A stretch of DNA of 64,000 bases, taken from a virus. Taxonomy: Duplodnaviria; Caudoviricetes. Position numbers and translations under genes: made by a program. Position 1 is the first letter of the stretch, and each line of letters begins with the position of its first letter. Under the pieces are notes generated by a model. It saw only the letters and a program-made list of their open reading frames with translations. It was not told the DNA's origin and did not search any database. Positions 17,239 to 61,204 of the stretch are shown piece by piece. The stretch covers positions 17,755 through 81,754 of the IMG/VR virus record IMGVR_UViG_3300045391_001467, one strand, 5' to 3'.

Positions 17239-20200
17239 TGTGGTTGCTGTCGCCTATGGCAGCTTTTTCAGCACCAGCAGTAGCAGCAGTAGCTGCATGG
17301 GTTTCTACCAATGTAGTTCTTACGCAGGTACTACTCACAATTGCAATGGCTGCATATGGTAATGCAAGACGTAGGCGAGCAGAGCGAGCAGCAAAAGATG
17401 CTTACAACAATAGCTTAGCTGACAGAACTATTACTTCTGTAGCAACAGATTCCCCTTATGTTTATGTGTATGGTAGGGCAAGGGTAGGTAGTGCTGTTCG
17501 GGCTATTTTTACATCAGGGGATAAAGACCAATATAAACATCTTGTATGTGTGCATGCAGCTCATGAATGTGATGCTATTGAAGAAATTTATATTGCAGGT
17601 AAAGCGCTTGGAACGCTTGATGCAGATGGACTTGTAACATCTGGTGATTACTATAAGCTAGCCACTCATGCCGTTGAGCATGAGATGACCACTAACACAT
17701 ATACCGTGGATCAAACCGGGATAGTGGCTGACAGTGTTGGGGTGGTTTATGAAGATTCAAATAATGGTGGTGGTGGGCAAGTTGAATTCACTTACAGTGG
17801 TGGTGTAGTTACTGTTGACCCAGAACTATTTACTTCATTATCTACTTCTGCAAAAGTCTATGTTAAGTGGTATTACACTACAAACGCATCTCGGGTACGT
17901 GTTAAAAAACACTTAGGTACTGCAGGTGATCCAGTTGATTCTTATCTGCATGGATTACTTCCTACTAAATGGCCTACTACAGCAACGTTGGATGGGTTCT
18001 GCTACACAGTAATTACATTAGACTTGAATCAACCTGAGTTTCAATCAGGTATCCCAGCTATTGAAGTTTTGTTGCGTGGTAAGAAAGTATATGATCCAAG
18101 AACAGATACTACTGTATGGAGTCAAAATCCCGCCCTGATCATCAATGATTATCTGACTAGCGAAATGTGTGGAGTAGACTCGTCAGACATTCCACAGGAC
18201 TATCTAATCTCTGCTGCTAATGATTGCGATGAAGTTGTTGCAATGGCTGAGATTGATTCTAATGGTAGCTATGTTTCCGGTGCTCGTTATACATTCAACG
18301 GCACTGTGACATCAGAGCAGAATCAACAAGAAGTATTGAATCAGATGGCAGATTCTATGGGTGGTGGTATTACATCTACTTCTTGGAAAATGTGGGCCGG
18401 TGTTTACACCGCACCTGTATTATCTCTTACTCAAGATGACATTGTAGGCTCTATTTCTATTACTCCGGGTGTATCTGATGCTGACTTGTTTAATGGTGTA
18501 AAAGGCCAATATGCAAATGGCCTTAATAATTACGTAACATCAGACTACAAGCCTTACCAAAACAGCACATATGTTACAGGTGACGGTAGGGAGCTTTGGC
18601 ATAATCTAGACTTCCCTTACACAGATAATGTACAGCGCGTTTGGAATCTTTGCAGAATATTCACTGAAGATCAACGGAATAGTTACACAGTGACTGCCGA
18701 GTTTTCAATGAAAGCTTGGGATATCAACGTAGGGGATAGGGTGTATTTGACAAGTGACTTGTTTGGCTGGTCAAATAAAGTATTTCGAGTTGTAGATAAG
18801 AAGTTTTCTCCCTCATCCCCTGTAGAGTTGTCCCTAAAGGAAGATGCTAGTTCTATTTGGGATTTTGTTGATGCAGCAGAGCTAGATGAAACACCTAACA
18901 CTGACTTACCAAATCCTTTTGATGTTGAAGAACTAACTTCTTTGACTTGTTCATCAGGTGATGATGATTTGTTACTACAAGCGGATGGTACAGTAGTTTC
19001 TCGTATTAAAGTTGAGTGGCCTGAAGCTACAACACAAGCTGTATTTACTAATGGGCTTATTGAAGTAGAATGGTTAAGAACTGGTGAATCTGTTTGGAAT
19101 AAGGTAGTCGTATCTGGAAATGAAACGGGTGCATATCTTTCTCCTGCGCATGATGGTAGTTTTTATACAATACGGGCAAGAGCGGTTAATCCATATTTTA
19201 ACGTAAAATCAGATTGGATTTATACTCTCCATCAAGTAGTAGGTAAGAGTGCTAATCCACCAGATGTTACGGGGTTTGCTGTTTCAGTGTTAAGTGATGC
19301 TACAAGACATTTCTCTTGGACAGTATCAGACCAGCCTGTCGATGTATTACATGGTGGTGGGTATATTATCAAGTATAGAACTGCTGGTAGCGGTACTCCT
19401 TTTGCATCAATGACTCCTTTGCATACGGGATTACTTACTCAGTCACCTTATGATACAAGAAGTCCTGCTGCAGGTACATATGACTTTGCTATTGCGGCAT
19501 TGGACAGTAGTGGTAATGAGTCTGCTAGTGCAGCATTGGTGAGTAGCGTAGTTATTACAGACACTAGCACAGCTTCAACTGCACTAGCAGCAGCAAATGC
19601 AGCTCAGGCAGACGCTACAAGCGCCCTTAGCCAATTGAGTGATATTGCCAATGATAACTTGTTAGTACCTTCTGAGAAGACAAGTGTAATTGGAAACTAC
19701 TCTGTTATTACAGGTGAACAAGCAGGTATTGACGCACAAGCTACAGCTTATGGTATTACTACCGAGAAAACGGCTTATGATAGTGCTGTGTCTACTCTTA
19801 CTACCTACTTAGGAACTTTAACATCTCCTGTAGCATGGAATAATACTTCTGGTAATACAACAATTGTAGGTTCTACATTTAGAACAAACTTTGCGAATGT
19901 TTATACTACTCGGCAAGCATTATTGAATGCTATTTATGCTGCAGCCAAGACTCTTGCAAATAATGCACAAACTACAGCTAATACTGCCGTAACTAATGCT
20001 GCTGCTGCACAAACTGATGCTACAAATGCTTTGAGTCAGCTATCTAGTATTACTAGCGATAGCATTCTTGCTAAGAATGAGAAGATTCCTGTCATCAAAG
20101 ATGTGAATTCTATTCTTAATGATTTTGTAAAGAATAGAATTCAAGCTGATGCTTTCGGCGTTTCTCATACAGATTATGATAACGCTGTGTGGGCATTGTG

Positions 20201-33439: not shown

Positions 33440-33759
33440 CTCACTTCCTTAATTCCAGCCATCCTGATAGCTTCCTGACAGATAGGACAAGGTTTTGCAT
33501 TAGCAGGATTTCCCTCTCTATCAAACCTGCATACAAACATGCTATGAGCCTTATCAAGTCTTTTGCAGCGAATGAGAGCAGAAATCTCAGCGTGTAAGAA
33601 ATGCCTATGTTCCATCCCCATTTGCTTTGCCAGTCGTGCTTGCACAGGATGGGATTTCACATAAGAATTTTTCCCAACACTGAGAATATTTCCTTTCTTG
33701 TCGTATAGAAAAGCCGTTATGTTGTATTTCTTTTTCATTTTAAAAATCAGTAACTCCAA
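33430..33759 (-). CDS. zinc-dependent cytidine/dCMP deaminase-like protein
   Basis: HAE ... PCPIC. Confidence 0.85.
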   Translation of the reverse strand: MELLIFKMKKKYNITAFLYDKKGNILSVGKNSYVKSHPVQARLAKQMGMEHRHFLHAEISALIRCKRLDKAHSMFVCRFDREGNPANAKPCPICQEAIRMAGIKEVRWT

Positions 33760-34514
33760 CCTCTCAAGAAATCAATATCACTTTCATTCAAGCCATCTAG
33801 ATTCACATTGATTTTCTCTAACAGGTCATAAGCATTCCCCGGCATTTCTTCTGCTTGCTTATCTGCAATAAAATCTGATTCTTTGAATAATTCAATAGCA
33901 GCATCCATGGAGAATGGTCTATCTGTTTCAATCAAAGCTTTTTCTCCATATTGCCCACCGATAGCAGTAGCTAAATCCTCCCAGCTACTCAATGGAACTT
34001 TTTGCAAGCTTAGACCAATGCGCAATAGATCACCTTTGCCAATTGTATAACCTCGCTGCTGGTACTTAAGAACACGCAACAAAGAACCATAAGGATATCT
34101 AGTTCCACTATGAAATCGCAAGAAGCGTTGTGAGGCATGTTTCAGAAAATCTTCATGGAATACAAACTCTTCTTTATCAATGTCATATGCAGCCATTGCT
34201 ACGGTGAAATCAAAGACATCAAAAATGTCTTGGCCTGTTTCAAAGAAATCAAAATGCATTAACTGAATAACGTGGTTATCCTTAACAAAAGTTACGGCAC
34301 GATCAGAAGCAGCTACGCACCACAAGCCTTCATCATATGCTTGTCCTACGGCTAGAATAAAGTCCTTCTCAGTTTTGAAGTAAATATCTACGTCATTGAC
34401 TGGGGTATTTGTAAATACACTTGTCAAAGCTCCACCTGCAATAAATGCACCAGATGGTAAGAAGTGATATGCAGCTTCCTTAAGTGCTTTTAATTCTTTA
34501 TTATGTTGTGTCAT
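33747..34514 (-). CDS. nucleotidyltransferase-fold protein 1
   Basis: FIAGGA ... NDVDIY; FDFTV; start at MTQHNK. Confidence 0.75.
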   Translation of the reverse strand: MTQHNKELKALKEAAYHFLPSGAFIAGGALTSVFTNTPVNDVDIYFKTEKDFILAVGQAYDEGLWCVAASDRAVTFVKDNHVIQLMHFDFFETGQDIFDVFDFTVAMAAYDIDKEEFVFHEDFLKHASQRFLRFHSGTRYPYGSLLRVLKYQQRGYTIGKGDLLRIGLSLQKVPLSSWEDLATAIGGQYGEKALIETDRPFSMDAAIELFKESDFIADKQAEEMPGNAYDLLEKINVNLDGLNESDIDFLRGWSY

Positions 34515-34525
34515 TAACTTTCCTG

Positions 34526-34560
34526 AACAAAAAGCCTGCAAAGCCTTTTGAGCTTGCAAG
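34526..34560 (-). terminator. intrinsic terminator after ssb-like gene
   Basis: CTTGCAAGCT-CAAAA-GGCTTTGCAGG then CTTTTTGTT on - strand. Confidence 0.55.
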
Positions 34561-35690: not shown

Positions 35691-36331
35691 CTACATACAA
35701 ATTTTAATACTCCATCCGATAAGCAACGCTAGTGGGGGCTTAATGATATTAACAGCGTGAAATTTTATATTGTAATCCTTCACATTTTCTACACCTACAA
35801 AGTCGGGCTGTTTCGTAATGTAATTAGCCACTAGAGTTAATCCCATAGCAGCGTATATTGTCAGTGCAGGTAAATTAAAAGTAGAGACAATAAACCAGCT
35901 CCACAATATTGTGAGCACATAGGCACTCAGAAGATACTCTGCACAGCTTAGAGCAAAGCTACCTATAAATTTAAGCATTGTGTTCCTTATTTAATACTGT
36001 AAGTTAAAGTATTGTTGTGATGAAGAATAGTGAAGTAATTAAAGCCTAATCTGCACAGCAATTCTTTAACCACCTCTCGCATACCACTATTTAACATTGG
36101 GCTATCACCAGTGTCGTGAACGAGATACACAGGTTTACCCGGATTATGCATAGCCGAAGATATATGTTCAAGTGCTTTTGCGGTAGTTTTACCGCAACAC
36201 CTGTCTTCTCTAACAATCATCTCTAACACATCAGTAGAAACTGCCTTCAGAAAATCACCGTATGTTTCTTTAGCTATGTTATTCACACTCTCTAATAGGC
36301 CTTTGCGACGACATTCTATGCAATCTTTCAT
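35691..36331 (-). CDS. membrane protein (35691-35978) and hypothetical protein (35987-36331)
   Basis: ORF track; first has three hydrophobic segments. Confidence 0.55.
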
Positions 36332-36513
36332 GGCTATCCTTATTTAATTTCAAAATCATATAAAGCACCTTCCAGACCATCCGCCAACTCCTTTAACATA
36401 CTGATAATGTACTCCTTATGGCTGGTATAGTTCTCATCATTAAAGTATTCATCTGGAATTTCATTAATTGTTACGTGGAAATTAAGCTCCATAGGATATT
36501 CCTCTTTAAAATT

Positions 36514-36591
36514 TAGAGCGAGCGGGGAGAATCAAACTCCCATTGATCCGTTACGGTGCTACAAGGTAGAAGCTTGTTCCGATACGCTCGC
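36514..36591 (-). ncRNA. tRNA-like RNA lacking D-arm, anticodon-like UCU (Arg)
   Basis: GCGAGCG/CGCTCGC acceptor, ACAAG-CTTCTAC-CTTGT arm, GGGAG-TTTGATT-CTCCC T-arm, 7 nt in place of D-arm, ends T-CTA. Confidence 0.75.
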
Positions 36592-36598
36592 ATTAATC

Positions 36599-36704
36599 TG
36601 GTGTTGGTGGCTGGCACTGGTCTCCAGCTTGGTGCCATGTCGATTTCAGAGGCTCGTGGCACCTTGACGCTCTCTAGCGAATCAGCCTTCGCAATTCCCC
36701 CAAC
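36599..36704 (-). ncRNA. 106 nt CCA-terminated tRNA-like RNA
   Basis: GTTGGGG/CACCAAC acceptor-like stem plus A-CCA; hairpins GCGAA/TTCGC, GGTGCCA/TGGCACC, GCTGG/CCAGC. Confidence 0.7.
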
Positions 36705-36712
36705 GAAACATC

Positions 36713-36741
36713 ATTATATACTAATTAATCCCTACTGTCAA
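36713..36741 (-). promoter_or_regulatory. sigma70-type promoter of the RNA pair
   Basis: TTGACA-17-TATAAT ending 8 nt upstream of the first RNA. Confidence 0.9.
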
Positions 36742-37177
36742 TAAATTCCCTGCCCATATTGCGTGGCATTATACCAACTAAAATACGTACCTTTGTTATA
36801 GCTATCCCAAAACATTTTTGTACGAGTGTTCTTTACATAATCATTTCCAGCCTTGCGGCGATGCATATAGTCTTCATAAGACTCATCTTCAATCCGTTTA
36901 GGCTGAAGAAATGTACGGTTTTCTTGCAAGAATGTTTTATTTGCTTGCATCATAGCATCATCTCTAAAATATATCCTTCCAAATTTTTAATTTGAGAATA
37001 TGTGAAAATATTCCCTACACTCTCTCCATTAGCTAGAATATCTATGATTTCCACATTTGGAGGCTCTGCTGGAGAGCTAGATGTAGCGGGATAAAATGGT
37101 GTAAAATAAAATAACACCTCTGCTTTTATTTCATCATCTGTTATTGGGTGGTTTACTGTTATTGATATTTGTCTCAC
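36738..37177 (-). CDS. two hypothetical genes (36738-36953, 36950-37177)
   Basis: Overlapping stop/start. Confidence 0.55.
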
Positions 37178-37347
37178 AAATATTTATACTCCACACTGAG
37201 TAATACATCCTCCAGTACTCTTCCATTAGTTCCTTACAATATTTCATATAAAGTATTGGCATATCTTGAATAATTAGCCATTGAGCGTAAGATGAGCACA
37301 TTACGTTTTATCCTAGATGTTTCTAGTTTTAATAGCACACTTCATTT

Positions 37348-37557
37348 TCAATCCCCTTTGTTCATCCATCTTCTGATAACATACTGTCTAGATAAACTGA
37401 TCAATGTAAATATAACTCCAACCAATAACCCATCATGTACGGTTAGTTTATACCCCATGCTAGGAAATACAATCATATTAGCTATAAAGTTGATAGAAAA
37501 ACCTATAGCAATATTAATACATGCTTCTAAAAAGCTTCGCTGCTTAGACTGAGCCAT
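37348..37557 (-). CDS. small two-TM membrane protein (QSK.RSFLEA..N family)
   Basis: MAQSKQRSFLEACINIAIGF ... ISLSRQYVIRRW. Confidence 0.7.
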   Translation of the reverse strand: MAQSKQRSFLEACINIAIGFSINFIANMIVFPSMGYKLTVHDGLLVGVIFTLISLSRQYVIRRWMNKGD

Positions 37558-57283: not shown

Positions 57284-57676
57284 CGGGAAGCCTCCAAAGC
57301 TTCTCCTGCCTCGTTTTGGCAAAGCTCTTGAATATGCAATGTAACGTCTTGTACAGAACGACCTTCATTCCACAGCTCTGAACATATTTCCACAGCAAAT
57401 TTAACTCCCAACTTATAAGCAAGCTGCTCTGATTCAGTCATTCTTCTCTCCTGTAATCTTCTTTCTGTACAAATGTACAATAAACGCAATAATAGGCGCA
57501 GAAATTGGAAGTGTCAATAGGATAGTTAGACGTAATATTCCTCTGACAAAACACCAATATGTTTTTCGCGCAGCATCATACAAATCGTCTAAATCATCTT
57601 CTCTTAAAGGCCATTGAATCAAGCCACGAGCAACAATCTTCAGAGATTGCCAATATGTCATACTTGGATCAAACAT
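57277..57676 (-). CDS. two small genes (57277 to about 57441; 57434-57676 membrane protein)
   Basis: AT-rich resident genes abutting the island. Confidence 0.5.
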
Positions 57677-58122
57677 TACGATTTCCTGTCAGTGGCGCAA
57701 TCTGCGCTGTCAGTAGGCGTGCTGTCAGGGGCGGCGGCGAGCATGGCGCGGTAGACTCGTGGCGGGAAGTCATCGTTGCCCGTGCATCGCACGATAGTGC
57801 GCACAGCAGCGACGTGCATTTCCTCTGTAAGCTCAACCGGCACCAGCTTCCACCCCTCCCGTGCCGCCTCTGCCTTGCGCAGCCTGTCGATGAGAGTGCG
57901 GCAAGTCTGCGGGTTGAAGGCGGCGATGAAATTCAAAATGGTTTCGTTATGGCTTTCCTCTCCGACTGCATATTGGTCTGCATCGACGGTACCTATATCG
58001 TAGAAGCTACCGTCTTCATTCAGATGGCCGAACTGGTCGCCTTGCGCGGTCTCCCATTTCCATCCGTGCGCCGCATCAACCAGCGCCCGCAAAGCATCAA
58101 GGTCAAGTATTGGTTGGCTCAC
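57676..58122 (-). CDS. Ead/Ea22-like protein with DUF551-type C-terminus
   Basis: FIAAFNPQTCRTLIDRL; GWKLVPVELTEEM...AMLAAAP. Confidence 0.7.
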   Translation of the reverse strand: MSQPILDLDALRALVDAAHGWKWETAQGDQFGHLNEDGSFYDIGTVDADQYAVGEESHNETILNFIAAFNPQTCRTLIDRLRKAEAAREGWKLVPVELTEEMHVAAVRTIVRCTGNDDFPPRVYRAMLAAAPDSTPTDSADCATDRKS

Positions 58123-59003
58123 GGCTTCTCCCCTTCACTGGATTGCGCGAGACTGAGCAGGGCGCGGGCGAAACCAATAATGCAATCGTCCCCGGTTCCC
58201 AATAGGTGTCTGTGCGCGAGTTCTCGTATCTCGGCATCCGTCACACCCGAAAGGGATACCGCTGCCCGCTCTTGTAGCGCTGAAACACCGGCAGAAGTCA
58301 CAATGCTTTCGCAATCTGCAAACTGGTCTTCATCCAATAGGTCGGTGAGCCGCGGCATCAGCTTCTGCATGCCGCGTCGAAGTCGATGATTTTCAATGTC
58401 GAGATGTTCGATTTCTTCTTTCGCGCCTTGGTCTTGTGGCGCTTGGGGGAGGGCGTTGGTTACCGGCCCCACAAGCGCGCCACTTTCCGCTTGCCCCAAC
58501 AGGCGCTTCGCGTTGCGAGCGTTCTGGGCAAACTCGCTACGGGTGCGATCCAAGTACGCCGACGCCTTCGCTATCTGGCGCGAAATGTCAAGCTGCTGGG
58601 AACCAGAGCCGGTTCTGTCTTGTTCATGGCTTTCCTTCGGTTGGGGCGGAAACTCATATACATTCATCGTGAACCCATATTCCGCCAGCATTCGCTGCAA
58701 GTCATAGAGCTTGTAGTTCGGGATGAAGCCGATCAGATCGCGCCAAACGTGCTCAAGCCGAGCCTGGAAGCCATCCGGCCAGTTGCGAATCACATTCAGC
58801 GGAATTTCCTTCGGCCCCGGCACGCTCGCAATGATGGCGTCGAGGTCGAGAGAGCGGATAGCATCAGCGGCCTTGTCTAGCGTGCGCTGGCCGTCGTCAT
58901 AGTCGTAGTAGCCGCCCACCGTGACAACGCGCGTTTCCTCGCACAGCTTTGCCGCTGCCTCTATCACCGCGTCCGCGATGCGCTTTGCGTAGTCGTTATT
59001 CAT
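58119..59003 (-). CDS. mosaic accessory protein
   Basis: Likely start MNNDYAK (SD GAGGAG) overlapping upstream stop. Confidence 0.6.
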   Translation of the reverse strand: MNNDYAKRIADAVIEAAAKLCEETRVVTVGGYYDYDDGQRTLDKAADAIRSLDLDAIIASVPGPKEIPLNVIRNWPDGFQARLEHVWRDLIGFIPNYKLYDLQRMLAEYGFTMNVYEFPPQPKESHEQDRTGSGSQQLDISRQIAKASAYLDRTRSEFAQNARNAKRLLGQAESGALVGPVTNALPQAPQDQGAKEEIEHLDIENHRLRRGMQKLMPRLTDLLDEDQFADCESIVTSAGVSALQERAAVSLSGVTDAEIRELAHRHLLGTGDDCIIGFARALLSLAQSSEGEKP

Positions 59004-59223
59004 TCTCAGCAAGCTCCTCAAGGTATGCGTTGTATTCGGCTGGATTGCACTTCGGGCAGGGGATGCGCCAAGTCTCAGGATCGTCACCATCGCGGTCCAT
59101 GTCACTCATGCGACCGTCGGTACACATCAAGTCCGGGTACAAAGTGGTCCCGCTGTAGCCCTGGAATCCGCATCCAGCAGGCCCAATTGCTCGGCGCTGT
59201 TTACGCCGCTGGTGTGAGTTCAT
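58996..59223 (-). CDS. small Cys-containing protein
   Basis: CGF ... C ... CPKCN; ATGA overlap. Confidence 0.6.
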   Translation of the reverse strand: MNSHQRRKQRRAIGPAGCGFQGYSGTTLYPDLMCTDGRMSDMDRDGDDPETWRIPCPKCNPAEYNAYLEELAENE

Positions 59224-59786
59224 TTGCTCTGCTCCTTCCCGGCTTGCGCGAGTGCGGCGTCAATGGCCTGGTCCATTGCATCTTCTGCGAGGATGCATTT
59301 CACGTTTCCCGCACCGTCCCGCGTCAAAACCACAGATTCAGCTACTTGAGGCTTTCCTTTTGCTGTGTTGTATCCAGCCCAGGATTCATTGCGCAGCCAC
59401 CGATACCGCGCTGCATCCCGGCTGTCCTCGCTCCGCGCTGCCTGTGGCTGCGGTGCTGCCGGTCGCTCTGCATGAAAGCCTTCCGCATAAAACGCATGTG
59501 CTACTTCCCTGAAAGGTGGTGCGTCATCAATGCTCCAGCCACGTGCATTGCATATCTGCACGAGCATTTCATCGGTCAGGATGGGCATTCCAGAAAGTAG
59601 GCGATATGGCTGCACTGTCGCGGCAGTCTTATCTGCAGATGCTGCAAGCTGCTGCCGAAGCTCCGCGTTCTGGCGTTCGAGTTCTGCGATGCTGGCTATC
59701 AGTTCGAGTTCCTGAGGAGAGCCATAGCCTTCACCATGATTGTGTCCGCAATGAAAGCAGGTTCCTCTTCTCGGCAGTAGGCTCAT
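59220..59786 (-). CDS. mosaic accessory protein
   Basis: DSRDAARYRWLR ... MDQAIDAAL motif typical of prophage early-region genes. Confidence 0.65.
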   Translation of the reverse strand: MSLLPRRGTCFHCGHNHGEGYGSPQELELIASIAELERQNAELRQQLAASADKTAATVQPYRLLSGMPILTDEMLVQICNARGWSIDDAPPFREVAHAFYAEGFHAERPAAPQPQAARSEDSRDAARYRWLRNESWAGYNTAKGKPQVAESVVLTRDGAGNVKCILAEDAMDQAIDAALAQAGKEQSK

Positions 59787-61204
59787 GACTTGTTGCCTCC
59801 CTGAGATTGATTGGATAGGGCGGCAACCAAATCACACGCCTTTTTGTACGCAGTTCCCGGAGTCCCAAGAAGCTCACTGGCGAGAACTGGATCAAGATGC
59901 CGAACTACTGATCCAAGTGCCGATTTGAAATCGGACGAGTCATCGAAATAAAGCGCAGATACTGCCGCATGCAGAGCCTTCCTCCACCCTTCCGGCACGG
60001 TCTGCTCGCTTACTGGCGCTGCGGCTGTTCTACCTGCAAGCAGTTCATGCAGAGCGCGTAACTGGTCATCAGTCAGCCGCTCTTTGAATGCAACCAAAAC
60101 ACTCTTTTGCCCCGGTGATTCAGCATCCCGCGAAACCCCTACGGCTTTCGGCAATGCGAGTGCCGCTGCTGCGGCTGGCTGGGAGCATGCAATGATCTTT
60201 GCATTTGCCCGTTCGACGGCTTCAGCGAGAGTTGTTGCTGCTGGCTGAGATAAAAGGGCACGCTTTGCAATTCGCATGCAAAGATTGAAGTCGGCTCTGC
60301 TAAGTGTGCGCCCCGCCTCTTCATGCACAATGCGCAAAGCTTCCGCCTGCTCACTCACCACTGGCGCTATCTGCGCTGGTTGCGTTGCTTCAGGTTGAGC
60401 GGGGATTTTCTGCTCGATGTAGTGCTTGCAACTCTCTGATGCGCAACCAGACTCACTCCGGCAGAAACAGGCATTCCCGCCTCCCAGCTCACAATCTGCC
60501 GGATCGTCGCTTGATTGCTGCGTTGCTTGGGCGCGGGAGAGGGCAAGCAGGGCGTATTCGCGCATGTCACGCTCACAGAACAAGGGCAACCCCAGCCCAC
60601 TATGCGCATAAGGCATCGGCAGCGACGGCAGCTCATCCACTGCGCCAGATACCGACTGCTCTGGCGCTGATGGTGTCAGAACGAAATCAATGCCGCCGAA
60701 GGATACTGGGATCGGCTCTTGCGCCTGCGATGGGCGCTTGAGAGATAGAATAAGCTCGGCCAATGCAATCAATCCGTGCTCGTATGCTTTATTCGCCGCC
60801 GCTTCTATCGCCTCGTTCCATACCTGAGCGCGAACAAGTTCGCCATCGTGCGTAGCACTATCGGACGAGGGAGGGGAGCCCGCAAGCAGCGCGGTAATTT
60901 GCAGGATCAATTCACGCTCAGAGCGCCCGCAAACCTTCTTCCAACCCTGCCTTAGATAATCAAGAGCCTCGTCTAGCGTCAGGTCATCACGCTCGCGGGC
61001 GTGATAGGACAGCGCTTCGATTATGTGCGCCGCTTTTTGCGCCTGCAGCGACGCCAGCGTATCCTGTGCCTGCAGAAGGGCGGCGAAGCGTTCGCAAATC
61101 TTCTCAGCCAATGCGTCGGCGCCCATGCTGTTGTTGCCGTCGATGGATCGGATAAACTGCGCCAGATCGTCTACGTCCAGCAGCATGTTGCGGTCAGTGG
61201 TCAT
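59783..61204 (-). CDS. long mosaic accessory protein
   Basis: 473 aa, Ala/Gln/Pro linkers joining short modules. Confidence 0.65.
   Translation of the reverse strand: MTTDRNMLLDVDDLAQFIRSIDGNNSMGADALAEKICERFAALLQAQDTLASLQAQKAAHIIEALSYHARERDDLTLDEALDYLRQGWKKVCGRSERELILQITALLAGSPPSSDSATHDGELVRAQVWNEAIEAAANKAYEHGLIALAELILSLKRPSQAQEPIPVSFGGIDFVLTPSAPEQSVSGAVDELPSLPMPYAHSGLGLPLFCERDMREYALLALSRAQATQQSSDDPADCELGGGNACFCRSESGCASESCKHYIEQKIPAQPEATQPAQIAPVVSEQAEALRIVHEEAGRTLSRADFNLCMRIAKRALLSQPAATTLAEAVERANAKIIACSQPAAAAALALPKAVGVSRDAESPGQKSVLVAFKERLTDDQLRALHELLAGRTAAAPVSEQTVPEGWRKALHAAVSALYFDDSSDFKSALGSVVRHLDPVLASELLGTPGTAYKKACDLVAALSNQSQGGNKS

Follow-up and report, generated by a model that had tools for sequence, protein, structure and literature searches.

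Does the short stretch between a consensus promoter and a tRNA-like gene in a phage genome encode an RNA of its own, and if so, of what kind? We addressed this question for a 64,000-nucleotide (nt) stretch of virus DNA (Duplodnaviria, Caudoviricetes; positions 17,755 to 81,754 of the IMG/VR record IMGVR_UViG_3300045391_001467), which we call the window. A sequence-only reading, made by a model without database searches, had noticed there a 106-nt segment with paired ends and a terminal CCA, and had singled it out as a candidate for an undescribed phage noncoding RNA. We confirmed that the segment, at 36599..36704 on the minus strand, is a real gene for a small RNA and belongs, as a divergent member, to a very widespread phage RNA family. 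It is not undescribed, however: the family has at least 97 collected members, among them the published sRNA-17, and the window RNA adds a new, divergent member to a kind that is published but poorly characterized.

Covariance models place the segment in a phage RNA family

Rfam returned no family for the 106 nt, either at gathering thresholds or at E values up to 10. A blastn search with the region picked up nothing in phages except the neighboring tRNA-like gene, and scanning IMG/VR for exact 33-mers and 19-mers turned up no copy of the window RNA. Covariance searches reached a family of the published kind. A model derived from the sequence of the window RNA alone (R1) had one weak match, in Stenotrophomonas phage SOVA965, where it lies in untranslated sequence ahead of the tRNA cluster. 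By eye, this element and the window RNA have in common the loop of a 5′ hairpin (P2), a 3′ hairpin (P3) and the closing stem (P1), with compensatory changes in every helix. Blastn searches started from the SOVA965 element and then from the E. coli version led to 49 and 118 phage records, respectively.

A second model, R2, was built from 12 phage members with the window left out, and includes sRNA-17 homologues of Shiga toxin (Stx) phages and P1-like phages. It matched the window at 36704..36601 (38.1 bits, E value of 2.2e-8, model positions 1 to 137), and neither the rest of the 64-kb window nor the rest of the 81.7-kb genome contained another match. The boundaries proposed from the sequence were thus recovered by a model that did not contain it. 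From the matches listed by a degenerate P2 motif scan of IMG/VR, R2 collected the 97 members, 84 to 220 nt long; in this collection the P2 sequence is largely fixed by the search pattern, and the alignment is fitted to the model. Few members are as short or as divergent as the window RNA.

A conserved fold with the outline of a tRNA

Members of the family consist of the closing stem P1, the 5′ hairpin P2 with the loop GGCUGA, a hypervariable central arm, and the 3′ hairpin P3, whose loop is usually AGAUCAGCA and which stacks directly on P1. In the 97-member alignment, standard pairs fill 95% of the cells and double-sided changes occur at 14/19 pairs. None of 500 shuffles reached these values, and sliding the 3′ partners left 27 to 41% of cells paired. 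The covarying pairs include eight of the nine in P1 and four of the five in P3, and at the free position of P2, C-G, U-A, A-U and G-C pairs all occur. The 5-bp hairpin and the "T-position" stem described in the sequence-only reading correspond to P2 and P3, the two family-defining hairpins, both of which covary.

The P2 loop is GGCUGA in 95/97 members, and its conserved GCUGA is complementary to the conserved UCAGC of the P3 loop, the core of which is CAG(C/U). Variants with CAGU retain a G·U pair with the P2 loop, and one member from outside the pattern selection carries a compensatory loop-loop change (GGUGA/UCACC). Judging from this complementarity, the P2 and P3 loops probably kiss, in a way reminiscent of the tRNA elbow. 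The ACCAG loop variant of the window RNA is common to one other member. Central arms are distinct in 90/97 members and range from 24 to 162 nt; neither a common seed nor an anti-Shine-Dalgarno motif was enriched in them.

In its predicted fold the family is tRNA-shaped. P3 leads into P1 as a T stem leads into an acceptor stem, P2 lies 3 nt after P1 at the place of a D arm, and the variable arm stands for the anticodon arm. Most members have a 9-bp P1. That of the window RNA has 7 positions and, together with the 5-bp P3, gives a 12-bp stack, as in the acceptor/T stack of a real tRNA. Stems P1, P2 and P3 are conserved across the family, whereas the CCA end that had been noticed is not a family feature: NCCA directly follows P1 in only 9/97 members, although this is about 6-fold more than the roughly 1.5 expected.

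Promoter and elements of the window RNA

All elements described here, and all neighboring genes around the RNA, lie on the minus strand. The RNA is preceded by a sigma-70 consensus promoter, TTGACA-17-TATAAT (36713..36741), which matches the consensus at 12/12 positions and, in a promoter scan, was the sole perfect match within 35900-37400. Its -35 hexamer is overlapped by the stop codon of the upstream open reading frame (ORF) ORF71. Eight nucleotides separate the end of the -10 hexamer from G36704, the first base of the RNA, exactly as had been read from the sequence.

The 5′ strand of P1, GUUGGGG (positions 1 to 7 of the RNA; 36698..36704), is paired with CACCAAC (positions 96 to 102; 36603..36609) in both the thermodynamic ensemble and R2. 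This pairing, proposed earlier, held up: the outer pairs GUUGG/CCAAC (positions 1 to 5) have probabilities of 0.98 to 0.99, and the ACCA tail read from the sequence (36599..36602) is left single-stranded. One G·A mismatch lies inside the stem. The three internal stems that had been listed also exist. After the GAAU linker and one U comes P2, GCGAA-GGCUGA-UUCGC (positions 13 to 28; 36677..36692), recognizable by the family loop and by its fourth pair, a compensatory A-U where other members usually have C-G. The central arm (positions 42 to 74; 36631..36663; pair probabilities of 0.93 to 0.99) is made of 7 bp (GGUGCCA/UGGCACC, probability of 0.99), an internal loop, 3 bp (CGA/UCG) and the 10-nt loop GCCUCUGAAA, in which CCUCU is displayed. 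The 7-bp stem with a "CU-CUG-AA" loop, to which attention had been drawn, therefore falls inside the hypervariable arm. P3, GCUGG-AGACCAGUG-CCAGC (positions 77 to 95; 36610..36628), has a U-A pair as a compensatory replacement of the usual C-G and is joined without a linker to the 3′ strand of P1.

The minimum free energy (MFE) of the window RNA is -34.9 kcal/mol and that of the family-consistent fold -32.3 kcal/mol, both from nested folding, in which the loop-loop duplex is not countable. This duplex has four pairs in the window RNA, including one G·U, and is worth about -4.4 kcal/mol, versus -8.3 kcal/mol for the consensus. The earlier suggestion of two alternative folds was rejected. The pairing of UGGCAC with the downstream GUGCCA is present in the sequence but has no comparative or energetic support: it gives -30.4 kcal/mol, 4.5 kcal/mol above the MFE, and would destroy the family-conserved P3.

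The MFE z-score of the segment, -1.5, is unremarkable. Its G+C content is 57.5%, versus 39.6% for the genome, and except within one GC-rich block no peak is higher. Only 0.43% of start positions in this genome have an acceptor-like stem with NCCA after it, and we estimate that a stem would start at the transcription start and end just before the next tRNA by chance in only about 0.3 to 1% of cases, an unlikely coincidence. The 7-nt spacer GAUUAAU (36592..36598) separates the ACCA from a tRNA without a D arm (36514..36591), so that the description of the locus as a tRNA-operon-like unit was accurate. The same heptamer precedes the D-arm-less tRNA of Limnohabitans phage DC31. A remnant of an HNH endonuclease gene was considered, as the spacer GATTAAT matches the end of the DC31 HNH ORF, and was dropped, with no similarity found at the protein level.

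Relation to sRNA-17 and other known RNAs

sRNA-17 is a 193-nt RNA from an mEp460-like prophage of E. coli K1 strain RS218 (Sun et al. 2020, Front Microbiol, PMC7719688). It accumulates as a discrete RNA, as seen by rapid amplification of cDNA ends (RACE) and Northern blotting, and affects the survival of E. coli K1 in blood (PMC7719688). Its replacement by a cassette lowered the expression of yfdP and yfdR, with log2 changes of -6.6 and -4.1, respectively (PMC7719688). The paper reports no Rfam homologue and describes neither a family nor a conserved fold nor a resemblance to tRNA, a word that never occurs in it (PMC7719688). The full-length primer of sRNA-17, CGTTGTGGTGAATGCGCAGGCTGATGCGCGAAA, the RACE primers and the Northern probe (supplementary table, PMC7719688) match the Stx/mEp460 family core in the same orientation, and the match includes the sRNA-17 5′ end, CGUUGUGGUGAAUGCGCAGGCUGAUGCGCGAAA. 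sRNA-17 therefore consists of the family core plus a terminator hairpin. It is the only published member, and our literature search found no paper describing the family as such.

The window RNA and sRNA-17 share P1, the GAAU linker, the P2 loop GGCUGA, a variable arm and a P3 with a CAGC-type loop that abuts P1. In sRNA-17, which is located in the cI-yfdP leader, an intrinsic terminator follows the core, P1 has 9 bp, and there is no CCA. In contrast, the window RNA is 106 nt long, with a 7-bp P1, ACCA and no terminator. Its central arm is unrelated to that of sRNA-17, a consensus promoter of its own precedes it, and a tRNA begins after a further 7 nt.

The same layout is found in the prophage small RNAs STnc100 (RF02076) and PasD1 and PasD2, where P1 leads through GAAU into a 5′ hairpin, and the variable region after it ends in a 3′ hairpin joined directly to a P1 3′ strand that starts with CACC. 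STnc100 and PasD have been described as structurally homologous, Hfq-associated small RNAs with different seed regions (preprint, bioRxiv 10.64898/2026.05.13.724894). The hairpin loops of STnc100 differ from those of the sRNA-17 family (e.g., AGGCA in P3), and STnc100 and PasD end in a terminator and a U-tract, unlike the window RNA. Elements of the STnc100 type and of the sRNA-17 type occur in the same phages, with RF02076 matching other loci and not the sRNA-17-type copies, and one P1-like element was weakly recognized by both RF02076 and R2. RF02076 had no match in 36300-36950 at E values up to 10. On these comparisons we treat STnc100/PasD as a sister family and not as the same family.

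The CCA-ended RNAs of phage T4, which the sequence-only reading had mentioned without finding a match, indeed show no sequence or model similarity to the window RNA. Like the window RNA, T4 rnaC and rnaD (species 1 and 2) are small stable phage RNAs beside tRNA-Arg(UCU) in a tRNA cluster. They lie downstream of the tRNA, whereas the window RNA lies upstream, and rnaC bears a true T-arm, GGUUCGAAUCC, whereas the window RNA has no T-loop. Neither R1 nor R2 had a match in the T4 locus (L061), and inspection revealed no motifs shared with the window RNA.

The window RNA has the outline of a tRNA, of the tRNA-like domain of transfer-messenger RNA (tmRNA) and of mascRNA, with paired ends, a coaxial 3′ hairpin (7 + 5 bp), a 5′ hairpin after 3 nt, loops that may interact, and ACCA. 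It differs from a tRNA in having no T-loop or D-loop consensus, no U8, no U33 and no 7-nt anticodon loop. That it is not a tRNA, as had been held, agrees with our searches of the 106-nt segment: ARAGORN in standard, intron and relaxed modes found no tRNA or tmRNA, and the Rfam tRNA model RF00005 had no match at E values up to 10. The one Rfam match at that same limit, to mascRNA, is on the opposite strand and no better than chance (E value of 0.77). Three further candidates were rejected. A 49-amino-acid (aa) frame starting with GTG runs on through the tRNA; a hammerhead-like core, CUGAUG...GAAA, lacks stem II and is not recognized by Rfam; and the tmRNA-like 5′ sequence GGCUGAUUC is a short chance match only.

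Distribution of the family and association with tRNA genes

This is a very common family, missing from Rfam 15 and without annotation in the records examined. Of 5,426 complete E. coli genomes, 846 contain its E. coli version, as do 272 plasmids, most of them the size of P1, and no annotated feature corresponds to the E. coli genome and plasmid matches listed. In the GenBank/RefSeq records examined, copies have either no annotation or, at most, an overlapping "hypothetical protein" or antisense ORF call. The host phages include P1-like phage-plasmids and Stx-converting, Klebsiella, Xanthomonas and Stenotrophomonas phages, as well as Ackermannviridae and N4-like phages, and the family is also abundant among IMG/VR contigs.

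Several copies lie next to tRNA genes. That of Xanthomonas phage Kintu is upstream of tRNA-Trp and tRNA-Arg(UCU), that of Klebsiella phage KP591P3 has an ACCA end and directly abuts tRNA-Ser, tRNA-Arg(UCU) and tRNA-Met, and that of Erwinia phage phiEt88 precedes tRNA-Phe. In the P1-like Escherichia phage JL22, the copy follows tRNA-Asn and tRNA-Thr at a distance of about 80 nt; in Stx2-converting phages and mEp460, it lies between cI and yfdP. A co-oriented tRNA is present within 300 nt in 16/97 members, and within 30 nt downstream in 5/97.

Two of these loci have further features. JL22 contains two sRNA-17-type copies and one STnc100-like copy inside 800 nt. An ORF annotated as plp (lipoprotein) lies antisense over the conserved RNA after tRNA-Asn and tRNA-Thr (L075:2544-2876), as it does in P1-like phages, and this plp call may be spurious. 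In the Stx2a_1447 prophage leader, two T-arm-like hairpins, CUGG-UUCAAUU-CCAG and UCCG-UUCGAUU-CGGA, occur just upstream of the sRNA-17 homologue (L072:1380-1500), so the cI-yfdP leader would hold several tRNA-related modules.

Acquisition of the module at a tRNA promoter

The record of this metagenomic phage is 81,754 bp long and has terminal repeats. Its closest complete relative found (G004, identified through locus L062; 82,048 bp) shares with the window, at 70 to 85% DNA identity, the upstream ORF71, the promoter (85%) and the downstream membrane-protein gene. In the relative, the same promoter drives a canonical tRNA-Arg(UCU), in a 97-nt stretch. Homology between the two ends at 36705, one base before the start of the RNA, and resumes at 35979, which delimits a lineage-specific insert of 725 bp (35980..36704). 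The insert comprises the RNA, the D-arm-less tRNA(UCU), ORF50 (36340-36492) and ORF114 (35987-36331), all on the minus strand. In more distant relatives, the slot holds a tRNA-Met (L003) or is empty (L004 and L005). Genome-wide, the closest relative has no copy of the RNA, and the window genome has exactly one. The comparison shows that the RNA module was acquired together with the D-arm-less tRNA(UCU), at a promoter that in the relative drives tRNA-Arg(UCU).

Searches anchored on the neighbors found no second instance of the arrangement. The ORF114 search returned no loci, the search with the SSB-like protein encoded downstream gave three relatives, none with the RNA, and loci with ORF71 homologues in metagenomes contained no such RNA. 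The promoter-motif scan found one true relative only, and none of 36 IMG/VR loci anchored on the D-arm-less tRNA had the RNA upstream of it.

Proposed processing and function, and alternatives

The explanation that we favor, and regard as reasonably probable, is that this divergent member of the sRNA-17-type family, with its tRNA-outlined fold, arrived as a module, is processed in the manner of a tRNA, and combines a structural scaffold with a functional variable arm. Family membership, fold, boundaries and acquisition are shown by the comparisons above; the expression, processing and function of the window RNA we infer as follows. Transcription would start at or beside G36704. RNase P would cut at the 5′ end of the downstream tRNA in a dimeric precursor, and 3′ exonucleases would trim the 7-nt spacer back to ACCA. 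Such maturation by RNase P and exonucleases is established for E. coli tRNAs and T4 dimeric precursors. The product would be a stable 106-nt RNA with a 7 + 5-bp stack of tRNA length. Its conserved core would represent the scaffold, both a substrate for the tRNA-processing machinery and a product that resists it. The variable arm would be the working part. It could pair with other RNAs or act as a regulator, like the arms of the related Hfq-bound STnc100 and PasD, or it could serve as a decoy that draws off a tRNA-binding factor.

A number of observations weigh against this explanation. The loops of the variable arms are mostly GNRA-like or A-rich and show no obvious seed sequences. About 90% of members lack a CCA end, which bars 3′ processing of the tRNA kind from being a general rule, and a strong promoter abuts P1 in only 2/88 members, the window copy being one of them. 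The window RNA has no terminator and U-tail such as those borne by sRNA-17 and the Hfq-bound relatives. If a loop-loop bonus is left out of account, its family-consistent fold is less stable than the MFE fold by 2.6 kcal/mol, its P1 contains the G·A mismatch, and its loop-loop pairing is down to four pairs, one of them a G·U. At 38 bits it is the second-weakest full-length member, in an alignment (A5) that was fitted to the model and whose P2 was set by the search pattern.

An unlikely alternative, in our estimate, is that the element is not a free RNA but acts in cis in the leader, as a 5′ protective structure, an entry site for tRNA processing or a put-like modifier of elongation, and thereby controls what lies downstream of it: the tRNA(UCU), ORF50, ORF114 and the genes for the membrane protein and the SSB-like protein. 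In its favor, no terminator-like site was found between the promoter and the downstream genes, and most members of the family lie inside long leaders without a promoter of their own. In lambdoid prophages the module is in the leader between cI and yfdP, and the loss of yfdP and yfdR expression in the sRNA-17 replacement mutant also fits control in cis, although it may be mere polarity of the inserted cassette. This alternative is at odds with the nearest relative, which lacks the module yet uses the same promoter and downstream genes, with the modules of P1-like phages, which lie downstream of tRNAs, and with the discrete band of sRNA-17 on Northern blots.

Slightly less plausible again is that the RNA is a tRNA mimic, a decoy or substrate bound, and perhaps CCA-repaired or charged, by a tRNA-recognizing enzyme or a tRNA-targeting defense nuclease, and forming with the D-arm-less tRNA(UCU) an anti-defense pair that took the place of the ordinary tRNA-Arg(UCU). 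The window copy does combine 7 + 5 bp with ACCA, whereas most members have 9 + 5 bp and no CCA; it was acquired with a noncanonical tRNA(UCU) in place of a canonical one, and the family is enriched beside tRNA genes. However, the RNA has no T-loop, D-loop signature or 7-nt anticodon loop, and ARAGORN and the Rfam tRNA models are silent. The CCA is not conserved in the family, and no defense or counter-defense gene was identified beside the RNA. We hold to be improbable, more so than the mimic idea at large, a specific version of it. Here the window copy, with its 12-bp stack, kissing-loop elbow and ACCA, would be a functional mimic that the host processes and whose CCA end is maintained; together with the D-arm-less tRNA(UCU) it would replace tRNA-Arg(UCU), decoding AGA and AGG, and would divert or resist a host factor that attacks or sequesters tRNAs. 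If true, the mimic reading would provide a first function for the family in P1, in Stx phages and in a sixth of E. coli genomes.

The idea that the segment has no function of its own, being either the relic of a tRNA gene or a leader sequence near a promoter that folds by chance, might be suggested by the unremarkable z-score and the want of close homologues in the nearest relatives. It can be dismissed as extremely improbable, as it is already contradicted by the significant and exactly bounded match to the independent R2 and by helices that covary across 97 members, besides the G+C peak of the segment and the publication of sRNA-17 as an expressed RNA.

Three traits set this phage apart: the promoter abutting P1, the 7 + 5-bp stack with ACCA, and the joint arrival with the tRNA(UCU). 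The copy is a useful natural variant, minimal at 106 nt, with its own consensus promoter and a tRNA-like stack ending in ACCA. As it sits in a dimeric precursor with an unusual tRNA, it offers an unusually clean test case.

The neighboring D-arm-less tRNA(UCU)

The tRNA downstream of the RNA (36514..36591, minus strand) has a long variable region, no D arm and the anticodon UCU. R3, a model made from 25 D-arm-less tRNA sequences of other phages, matched it with 90.6 bits (E value of 2e-23). A motif scan found this type of tRNA, with a variable region of 19 to 20 nt, at 36 IMG/VR loci and in phages DC31 and SOVA965, in many cases within tRNA clusters (L001, L002 and L014-L049); it is unannotated in DC31 and SOVA965. 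Among the 25 distinct sequences, 99.3% of the cells are paired and double changes occur at 11/17 pairs, with all three stems covarying. The Rfam tRNA model gives 33 to 44 bits for other D-arm-less tRNAs and nothing for the window copy. The D-arm-less tRNA(UCU) is a real, widespread, conserved and mostly unannotated type of phage tRNA. The window copy has the T-loop UUUGAUU (C56U), and CUA where its relatives and the tRNA of G004 encode CCA. In the long ORFs of the phage, AGA and AGG make up 44% of the arginine codons, and a tRNA with a UCU anticodon would therefore plausibly be useful to it.

The D-arm-less tRNA(UCU) of DC31 and that of SOVA965 both begin just after the end of a gene for an HNH homing endonuclease (L001:1222-1506 and L002:955-1491). 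In T4, segB lies beside tRNA-Arg(UCU), which resembles this arrangement. On an IMG/VR contig related to DC31 (L042:582-790), the D-arm-less tRNA is directly followed by a 99-nt tRNA match whose anticodon region is enlarged by an insertion of some 25 nt. Next on this contig come a CCA-ended tRNA-like RNA, GGACAAA...UUUGUCC-ACCA, with the T-loop UUUGAUU, and a lone T-arm-like hairpin. Loci L043 and L024 contain tRNA matches of 100 to 108 nt.

Other features of the window

ORF71, upstream of the RNA (36738-36953, minus strand), encodes a small conserved protein with the motif RRKAGNDYVK..TRTKMFWDSYN; homologues occur in marine metagenomes and viral contigs (L050-L065), and one of them, P0002, is 70% identical. 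Downstream of the SSB-like gene, a 270-aa protein (33747-34559, minus strand) has a GG...DVD motif and a weak match to a PHROG nucleotidyltransferase, and may be connected with the metabolism of tRNA 3′ ends; Pfam and NCBIfam gave no match for it. Farther away, a GC-rich block of about 3.5 kb (57600-61200; 55 to 68% G+C) contains minus-strand ORFs of 328 and 473 aa, both high in G+C and Ala-rich, and looks horizontally acquired.

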